Shown here piece after piece: positions 31,661 through 31,855 of a stretch of 64,000 nt of DNA (position 1 is its first letter; each line of letters begins with the position of its first letter). A model generated the notes under the pieces. The model ran no database searches and was not told the DNA's origin. It was given only the letters and a program-made list of their open reading frames with translations. Origin of the DNA: Nitrospirota bacterium (GTDB taxonomy: Bacteria; Nitrospirota; Thermodesulfovibrionia; Thermodesulfovibrionales; JdFR-85); assembly GCA_035873375.1 (NCBI GenBank), contig JAYWMQ010000017.1:728-64727 (forward strand), written 5' to 3'. A program made the translations under genes and the position numbers.

Positions 31661-31855
31661 CTATCTCTCAAGGGAAGTCCCCTCCGCCTTTCCCATTCCT
31701 GCCTTAATGCCGTATTTTCTGATCTTATAGCCTATCATCCTCTCCGTAATTCCAAGGGTCCTTGCTGCCTTTGCCTTGACCCAGTTACTCTCCCTGAGGG
31801 CATTGAGTATCTCCCCCCGCTCCAGGTCTTCAATTTTGTGTTTCAGGGAATCCAT
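31661..31855 (-). CDS. stand-alone Fis-type HTH protein (isolated DNA-binding domain of a sigma54 activator)
   Basis: 64 aa. LERGEILNALRESNWVKAKAARTLGITERMIGYKIRKYGI closely parallels the C-terminus of the GAF activator ([40 protein letters not shown]). GAGGTGA RBS. Confidence 0.75.
   Translation of the reverse strand: MDSLKHKIEDLERGEILNALRESNWVKAKAARTLGITERMIGYKIRKYGIKAGMGKAEGTSLER

Follow-up and report, generated by a model that had tools for sequence, protein, structure and literature searches.

To our knowledge, every characterized regulator of sigma-54 activators acts on the sensory or ATPase domains of those activators. The anti-activators NifL, PspA, HrpV and FleN hold down an enhancer-binding protein (EBP) by protein-protein contact with its AAA+ or GAF domain, and PspA is encoded in the very regulon that it controls; we know of no sigma-54 anti-activator that is a copy of the DNA-binding domain. 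The subject here is a gene for a stand-alone NifA-type DNA-binding domain, a helix-turn-helix (HTH) protein of 64 aa (the mini protein, encoded by the mini-HTH gene), which is the first cistron of a nitrogen operon in a Nitrospirota bacterium (GenBank assembly GCA_035873375.1, contig JAYWMQ010000017.1). The window is the whole stretch of DNA analysed, 64,000 nt from positions 728 to 64,727 of the contig; coordinates below are those of the window. A sequence-only reading had taken the gene for a copy of a neighbouring activator's domain and had proposed that it competes with its parent. The role proposed here, with due reserve, is likewise that of holding down an EBP; no homology to NifL, PspA, HrpV or FleN was found with Pfam or NCBIfam, and the mini protein belongs to none of these families.

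The nearest relatives by fold are the DNA-binding domains of NifA and other EBPs, which have the same three-helix HTH_8 fold without helix A and have R39, G42-Y43-K/R44 and K47-Y48 in common with the mini protein. They differ in that the mini protein is a free-standing product and carries M27, E38 and M40 in place of Q, P/Q and Q. The classical NifA enhancer motif is TGT-N10-ACA, whereas the enhancer core ahead of the mini gene is ACA-N4-TGT. Escherichia coli Fis is the only other well-known HTH_8 protein that stands alone, and the mini protein superposes on it (TM 0.72, rmsd 1.3 Å over 51 residues). Fis, however, has 98 aa with a beta-hairpin arm and helix A, which make a stable dimer; the mini protein begins at the equivalent of helix B and is 20% identical. 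Fis is a global, growth-phase-controlled nucleoid protein, whereas the mini protein is tied to sigma-54 nitrogen operons. If Fis proper is defined by arm plus helix A and about 98 aa, the mini protein falls outside it, and no NCBIfam Fis model matched.

Two further comparisons concern regulatory logic. In enterobacteria nac is switched on by NtrC, and its product in turn governs sigma-70 promoters; Nac is thus a small DNA-binding regulator whose synthesis depends on a sigma-54 nitrogen activator, but it is LysR-type, unrelated to the activator's DNA-binding domain, and does not lead a transport operon. Cro/CI, TrlR/TraS of Agrobacterium and the eukaryotic microProteins offer an analogy in which a short relative competes for the sites or partners of a regulator. 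This comparison of truncated paralogues is one of logic only: the protein families are others, and none works on a sigma-54 enhancer.

In a literature search of incomplete coverage, neither amt/glnB operons led by stand-alone NifA-type HTH genes nor DNA-binding-domain-only regulators of sigma-54 activators were found described; the sequence-only reading, which knew of no such module in nitrogen control, was in agreement. The highly expressed 'NifA-like regulator' gene next to nxrAB in Nitrospira moscoviensis (PMC6606698) was considered as a published mini-HTH gene and rejected, as its 1638 nt encode a full-length protein. What is new here is the configuration, undescribed for sigma-54 systems and conserved across a bacterial class; the fold and the regulatory logic are known.

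The mini-HTH protein and its family

It is well supported that the window ORF (open reading frame) is translated and belongs to a family of stand-alone NifA-type HTH_8 proteins that is old and tightly conserved. The gene and its ribosome-binding site are:

31661-31855, minus strand: mini-HTH gene, encoding a 64-aa stand-alone NifA-type HTH_8 protein (from the ORF, Pfam and an AlphaFold2 model)
31862-31868, minus strand: Shine-Dalgarno sequence GAGGTGA, 6 nt before the ATG (read from the sequence)

Translation of the ORF from 31855 to 31661 gives 64 aa, MDSLKHKIEDLERGEILNALRESNWVKAKAARTLGITERMIGYKIRKYGIKAGMGKAEGTSLER. HTH_8 (PF02954, 'Fis family') is the sole Pfam domain above threshold; it matches residues 8-48 over profile positions 2-42 of 42 (E=9.8e-13; 48.1 bits against a cut-off of 22). 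The AAA+ domain Sigma54_activat is absent from the product in the same Pfam scan, which sets it apart from the EBPs, and no AAA+ coding remnant lies upstream of the gene, where the promoter cassette fills the space. NCBIfam holds no model for the family: the top match is to the last 41 positions (490-530) of the NifA model, and the NifA equivalog TIGR01817 gives 41.2 bits against a cut-off of 528.85. The AlphaFold2 model (pLDDT 84, with 47 of the 64 residues at 90 or above) has helices at residues 3-22, 27-34 and 38-48, followed by a disordered tail (51-64). This is the three-helix HTH_8 fold, its HTH made of the last two helices, by the model itself and by Foldseek, in which EBP DNA-binding domains and helices B-D of Fis rank highest (TM 0.7-0.77 to 2m8g, to the NtrC1 and NtrC4 DNA-binding domains and to Fis). 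The solved structures closest in sequence are 2m8g (E=1.5e-15) and NifA 9qq6 (E=1.2e-11).

A search of 5.8 billion proteins returned 433 homologue clusters, the best 120 of them all of 53-97 aa and with HTH_8 alone. In a HMMER search of 1.8 billion representatives, short proteins at 55-76% identity lead the list; full-length activators appear only from E ~1e-8, at no more than 51% identity. Relatives are encoded at 364 places in species-representative genomes, and the best 80 of the 364 are almost all in Nitrospirota: Thermodesulfovibrionales, Dissulfurispiraceae, Sulfobium and 'Nitrospirae' metagenome-assembled genomes. The family thus has hundreds of members of 53-78 aa, nearly all from Nitrospirota (Thermodesulfovibrionia). 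Databases call them 'hypothetical', 'helix-turn-helix domain-containing' or, misleadingly, 'Nif-specific regulatory protein' (JGI).

Counted from the initiator Met, the first ~50 aa form the family core (MxSLKxKIxxxEREEIxNALxECNWVMAxAARxLGITERMIGYKIKKYGI), and the tail behind it is variable. Members were defined here by a length of 53-78 aa, a core beginning at the initiator Met and the signature G-I-T-E-R-M/I-I-G-Y-K; the window protein has all of these, its signature reading GITERMIGYK. Within the set examined, TERM or TERI marks 188 short and 2 mid-length proteins and not one of full length. In a codon comparison, dN/dS is 0.02-0.03 against close relatives, with a median of 0.13 over 369 pairs; the mini protein is therefore made and under strong selection. 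Divergent subfamilies can be told by the start of the recognition helix, SERT (P0236, 44% identity) and TQRI (P0270, ~45-50%). Both retain the nitrogen-operon context and the promoter cassette, and the link with nitrogen-uptake operons is therefore a property of the family.

The tail of the window protein is disordered and unconserved. Elsewhere a motif, (K/R)EV(R/Q)W(I/V)E(D/E), follows directly on the HTH and is conserved in 26 of 77 distinct loci (for example L014 1189-1419, L016 5138-5323 and L022 8001-8186); it is enriched ahead of operons with long or divergent Amt, or with porin-permease-PP2C/kinase genes. Such a conserved tail suggests a partner protein. Five other proteins found along the way, P0121 (320 aa), P0138 (1423 aa), P0175, P0183 and P0184, carry 3-7 tandem HTH_8-like stretches each, an architecture unfamiliar to us. 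P0222, of 57 aa, was considered as a family member outside nitrogen operons and rejected, as it is a domain cut off an EBP by a stop codon: at L088 (2-1138) the EBP ORF stops in the AAA+ lid and P0222 begins 3 nt later. That split EBP may be a pseudogene or, alternatively, an activator that is naturally split.

Relation to the neighbouring activator

The presumed cognate EBP of the mini operon is encoded nearby:

27392-28954, plus strand: NifA-like activator with GAF, AAA+ and HTH_8 domains (Pfam), convergent with the mini operon

It scores 530.9 bits against TIGR01817, barely above the cut-off of 528.85. In 13 loci the mini gene has a homologous GAF activator linked to it, which lies convergent downstream or directly upstream. 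The likeness that the sequence-only reading saw between the two HTH regions is borne out: the strings it quoted are exact, and a local alignment of the mini protein with the activator's C-terminus runs over 49 residues with 25 identities (BLOSUM62 score 141). The other activator that it had called much less similar, a sensor-less one (684-1862, minus strand), scores 37, and a six-frame search of the window found no other segment scoring above 40 against the mini protein.

The word 'copy' is another matter. Over a 42-aa core, mini proteins are 75% identical to each other and the domains of the linked activators are 63% identical among themselves; a mini protein and an activator are 54% identical when they come from one locus and 54.5% when they come from different loci. 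On these figures the neighbouring activator is rejected as the source of a recent duplication or gene conversion, and the core identities give no sign of co-evolution or gene conversion between a mini protein and its linked activator. The mini gene and the NifA-type DNA-binding domain are therefore old paralogues, and the gene is not the neighbour's copy; what stood of the earlier claim is that the product is a stand-alone DNA-binding domain of NifA type, with HTH_8 only.

The two classes have in common E12, I16, A19, L20, W25, A30-A31-R32, L34-G35-I36-T37, R39, G42-Y43-K/R44 and K47-Y48. They part at a few positions: 27 is M in 76% of mini proteins versus Q in 91% of activators; 38 is E in 93% of mini proteins versus P, Q or S; 40 is M or I versus Q; and 15 and 22 are E versus mostly R or K, which are charge reversals. 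From our own alignment to Fis, we match positions 27 and 40 with Gln74 and Thr87, which contact the DNA backbone, and position 38 with Arg85. Judged by this alignment, the DNA-facing surface of the mini protein is remodelled and not merely kept.

Promoter cassette

The sequence-only reading had placed the gene behind a sigma-54 promoter and had pointed to TACA-N4-TGTA sites. Both are present upstream of the gene, with an IHF-like site between them:

31893-31908, minus strand: sigma-54 promoter TGGCACGgtttTAGCT, with -24 GG and -12 GC
31914-31926, minus strand: IHF-like site AATCAAcaggTTA (consensus WATCAANNNNTTR), immediately upstream of the -24 element
31956-31967, no strand: proximal enhancer palindrome TACAAAATTGTA, a perfect TACA-N4-TGTA, centred near -79
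31974-31985, no strand: distal enhancer palindrome, with one mismatch, centred near -97 and 18 bp from the proximal one

The promoter agrees with 11 of the 12 specified positions of TGGCACG-N4-TTGCW and is accepted as a sigma-54 promoter; it predicts a transcription start near 31883 and a leader of about 27 nt. Matches to TGGCAYG-N4-TNGCW number 2 in the window versus 0.15 expected. The proximal palindrome lies inside a perfect 18-bp palindrome, CCATACAATTTTGTATGG. TACA-N4-TGTA occurs 8 times in the window versus 1.5 expected, a count that 0 of 100 shuffles reached. A candidate third site, degenerate, lies 19 bp upstream of the distal palindrome (AACAAAAACGTA, 31993-32004); among related loci, several show a third site clearly, near -114.

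The same architecture recurs among relatives. A sigma-54 promoter precedes the mini gene in 59 of 78 distinct loci, where a call required invariant GG and GC, agreement at 9 or more of the 12 consensus positions and a place 5-50 nt ahead of the start codon; the palindrome ACAA-N2-TTGT is found in 55 of the 78 upstream regions versus 0.6 expected. When relatives are aligned on their promoters, the palindromes are centred at -96 and -78, with a modal spacing of 18 bp (18 of 27 site pairs). Between the palindromes and the -24 element the consensus is cctTa.AAAtCAA..agTTa: the exact IHF consensus falls at -44/-43 in 19 of 54 aligned cassettes versus 0.36 expected, and an ATCAA core at -43/-42 in 33 of the 54. 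No further conserved motif is visible in the aligned cassettes. The IHF-like site, centred at about -38 (-44 to -32 in the 54 aligned cassettes), is only ~35-55 bp from the enhancer palindromes, an unusually compact geometry for a sigma-54 promoter. The window locus has the cassette in full, that is, two palindromes, IHF-like site and promoter, and then the genes for barrel, Amt and PII.

The cassette also recurs ahead of GATase-glnA. In L080 (1495-1671) and L081 (1168-1344), close relatives of the window with GlnA 89% identical, a second cassette and mini gene lie between amt and GATase-glnA, where the window has only a 57-nt spacer (43329-43385). The cassette therefore behaves as a portable unit.

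The mini-led operon

Downstream of the mini gene, on the same strand, the window has the genes expected of a nitrogen operon, as the sequence-only reading had it:

30810-31526, minus strand: second cistron, a 238-aa signal-peptide protein with C-terminal ...LQLDIDF
29363-30760, minus strand: third cistron, ammonium transporter (Amt; Pfam Ammonium_transp, E=2e-124)
28991-29329, minus strand: fourth cistron, PII (GlnB/GlnK; Pfam P-II, E=2e-35)

The 238-aa protein has no Pfam or NCBIfam match and is probably a small outer-membrane beta-barrel. The same slot is occupied elsewhere by BBP2 porins (L005, L026) or, in other lineages, by unannotated proteins of 250-390 aa, which points to an outer-membrane channel dedicated to ammonium or nitrogen compounds. 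No terminator-like site was predicted in the spacer behind the window's mini gene. That the leader or the mini-barrel spacer holds an RNA element or attenuator was considered and rejected on that ground and because no Rfam element is present, the only match in the Rfam scan being a spurious one to mir-611 (26 bits versus a cut-off of 90).

A synteny survey, which the sequence-only reading had called for, was made over 55 distinct loci whose downstream sequence extends to 3 kb or more. A same-strand Amt gene follows the mini gene within 3 kb in 45 of these and within 8 kb in 51. The loci with no Amt nearby mostly have a longer operon, in the order mini, BBP2 porin, amino-acid-permease-like protein, PP2C/Ser-Thr kinase fusion, Amt, PII; in L080 and L081 a mini gene precedes GATase-glnA instead. 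The spacer to the next ORF has a median of 50 nt and is at most 200 nt in 55 of 62 cases, and in L001 and L089 the mini gene overlaps the next gene at the stop and start codons. Close relatives of the window have an identical gene order, the convergent activator included; Dissulfurispira thermophila has mini, a 289-aa protein, Amt and PII, then GATase-PII-GlnA; and one 60%-identical member heads BBP2 porin-Amt-PII-Amt-GlnA. That the mini gene is the lead cistron of nitrogen-scavenging operons, comprising outer-membrane barrel, Amt and PII, and more in some lineages, is well supported.

In nine loci (L022, L026, L035, L038, L055, L067, L076, L082 and L083) a pair of PII-like genes lies ~5-6 kb upstream of the mini gene, encoding proteins of ~106 and 138 aa with 37-43% identity to GlnB. 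Such a pair is what one would expect nifI1/nifI2 to look like within a nif cluster, and the mini-led operon of these genomes therefore appears to lie just downstream of nitrogenase genes.

Proposed feedback at the enhancer and its alternatives

The perspective favoured here, held tentatively and at somewhat less than an even chance, is that the mini protein acts as a feedback inhibitor at the enhancer, poisoning by heterodimers included. The pair of ACA-N4-TGT elements is most likely the enhancer of the NifA-like GAF protein, because a sigma-54 promoter needs an EBP, these are the only conserved palindromes and this is the only linked activator. Under nitrogen limitation the activator would occupy the palindromes, IHF would bend the DNA and sigma-54 RNA polymerase would fire; the mini protein, co-produced with the transport proteins, would then return to the same elements, either as a homodimer or mixed with DNA-binding domains of the activator. 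Having no ATPase, it would limit activator occupancy; the outcome would be negative feedback on its own operon, as gain control or as fast shut-off, and the feedback would extend to other operons with these sites, for example glnB-amt-glnA at 41641. Return to the enhancer is the simplest reading because the recognition-helix residues are mostly shared (R32, R39, G42, Y43, K/R44, K47 and Y48 are common to both HTHs) and because the protein is made only when the promoter fires; a negative sign is the default because the mini protein cannot activate. The isolated NifA C-terminus reportedly recognizes the upstream activating sequence (UAS) in vivo (Morett, Cannon and Buck 1988); if this is right, there is precedent for a domain-only polypeptide on enhancers.

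Feedback at the enhancer also has several observations to contend with. The differences at DNA-facing positions (M27 for Q, E38 for P, Q or S, and M40 for Q) may matter; identical site specificity is therefore not to be assumed, and specificity or affinity may differ. Conservation of the whole surface, at 75% versus 63% for the activator domains, suggests protein partners besides DNA. From sequence alone, the feedback could be of either sign. Finally, isolated NifA DNA-binding domains with three helices and no helix A are monomers of very weak UAS affinity (PMC10590331), and a plain decoy would therefore need a high concentration or a stronger dimer.

This same weakness is the starting point of an alternative that we consider unlikely, in which the mini protein is a positive co-factor: it would co-occupy half-sites or bridge activator domains, stabilising a weak activator and giving feed-forward amplification. 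NifA-type DNA-binding domains bind weakly and do not dimerize alone (PMC10590331), the 18-bp spacing of the palindromes is rigid, and both the highly conserved N-terminal half of helix 1 (L4, I/V8, L/I/M11) and the conserved charge reversals at 15 and 22 relative to activators are compatible with contact between mini protein and activator. The same contacts, however, would equally suit a poisoning heterodimer; the promoter has to fire before any mini protein exists; and the second operon of the window has the sites without the mini gene. A positive co-factor of this sort is also without precedent that we know of. Comparably improbable is a role like that of Nac, in which the mini protein would be the output of a sigma-54/NifA-like circuit under nitrogen limitation and would repress or activate a regulon of its own, for example sigma-70 promoters, through sites that resemble the enhancer without being identical to it. 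The textbook path from NtrC through nac to sigma-70 promoters is the model for it; the near-invariant, derived signature M27, E38, M40, confined to stand-alone proteins (188 short, 0 full-length), would fit a binding mode of its own, as would conservation above that of the activator domains. A second conserved motif is nevertheless not visible in the cassettes, further near-matches to the motif that the window contains fall inside genes or away from starts, and glnA upstream regions have no conserved ACA-Nx-TGT element.

A Fis-like architectural role, bending DNA to aid looping between enhancer and promoter, is given very little weight. The mini fold equals Fis helices B-D, and Fis itself reportedly stems from an NtrC DNA-binding domain (Morett and Bork 1998); but the mini protein has neither Fis helix A nor the N-terminal arm, a conserved IHF-like site already lies between enhancer and promoter and appears to take the bending role, and expression, as predicted from the promoters, is sigma-54-dependent and operon-specific rather than global. 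That the ORF is a non-functional remnant or a mis-called ORF, the C-terminus of a decayed or split activator, is effectively refuted. Split activators do exist, as P0222 at L088 with its stop codon illustrates, and several short 'TPRQ' matches are contig-edge fragments; against this stand hundreds of intact orthologues with a fixed start, a Shine-Dalgarno sequence, dN/dS of 0.02-0.13 and conserved synteny, and the absence of an upstream AAA+ remnant.

Beyond the single locus, feedback at the enhancer can be extended, with rather more hesitation, to a layer of micro-protein control in Nitrospirota: a DNA-binding-domain-only paralogue and its enhancer-IHF-promoter cassette would form a portable module that sets the gain or shut-off of each operon it heads, by occupying half-sites or by pairing with activator domains. 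If true, a natural DNA-binding-domain-only protein inside the activator's target operons would place control at a different point, the enhancer itself, and would represent an undescribed regulation of bacterial EBPs at the DNA-binding step. It would also supply a missing piece of nitrogen control in Thermodesulfovibrionia, widespread anaerobes with almost no regulatory genetics, and the small movable unit of enhancer, IHF site, sigma-54 promoter and mini gene would be of interest for synthetic circuits. The rigid promoter architecture makes the hypothesis directly testable.

The second nitrogen operon and the glnA upstream region

A second operon of the window, glnB-amt-GATase-glnA from 41641, has enhancer sites and no mini gene:

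41454-41495, no strand: enhancer cluster, with TACA-N4-TGTA at 41454 and 41484 and a third copy, ACA-N4-TGT, between them
41541-41556, plus strand: sigma-54-like promoter TGGCACGaataTTGTA, TGGCACG-N4-TTGTA

As the enhancer motif precedes an operon that has no mini gene, the mini protein would act there in trans. The -12 element of the promoter is GT, not GC, which makes the evidence for it weaker, and the promoter has no IHF-like site despite the cluster of enhancer palindromes; it may be weaker or differently tuned.

A Nac-like site at sigma-70 promoters was considered for the case of glnA and rejected, as the upstream regions of 15 other glnA genes conserve nothing of the kind. The window itself has, at 44055-44105 upstream of glnA, a sigma-70-like promoter (TTGACA-N17-TATAGT) with a second TTGACA before it, and this promoter overlaps an imperfect palindrome, GACAAAACTTTGTC (ACA-N6-TGT).

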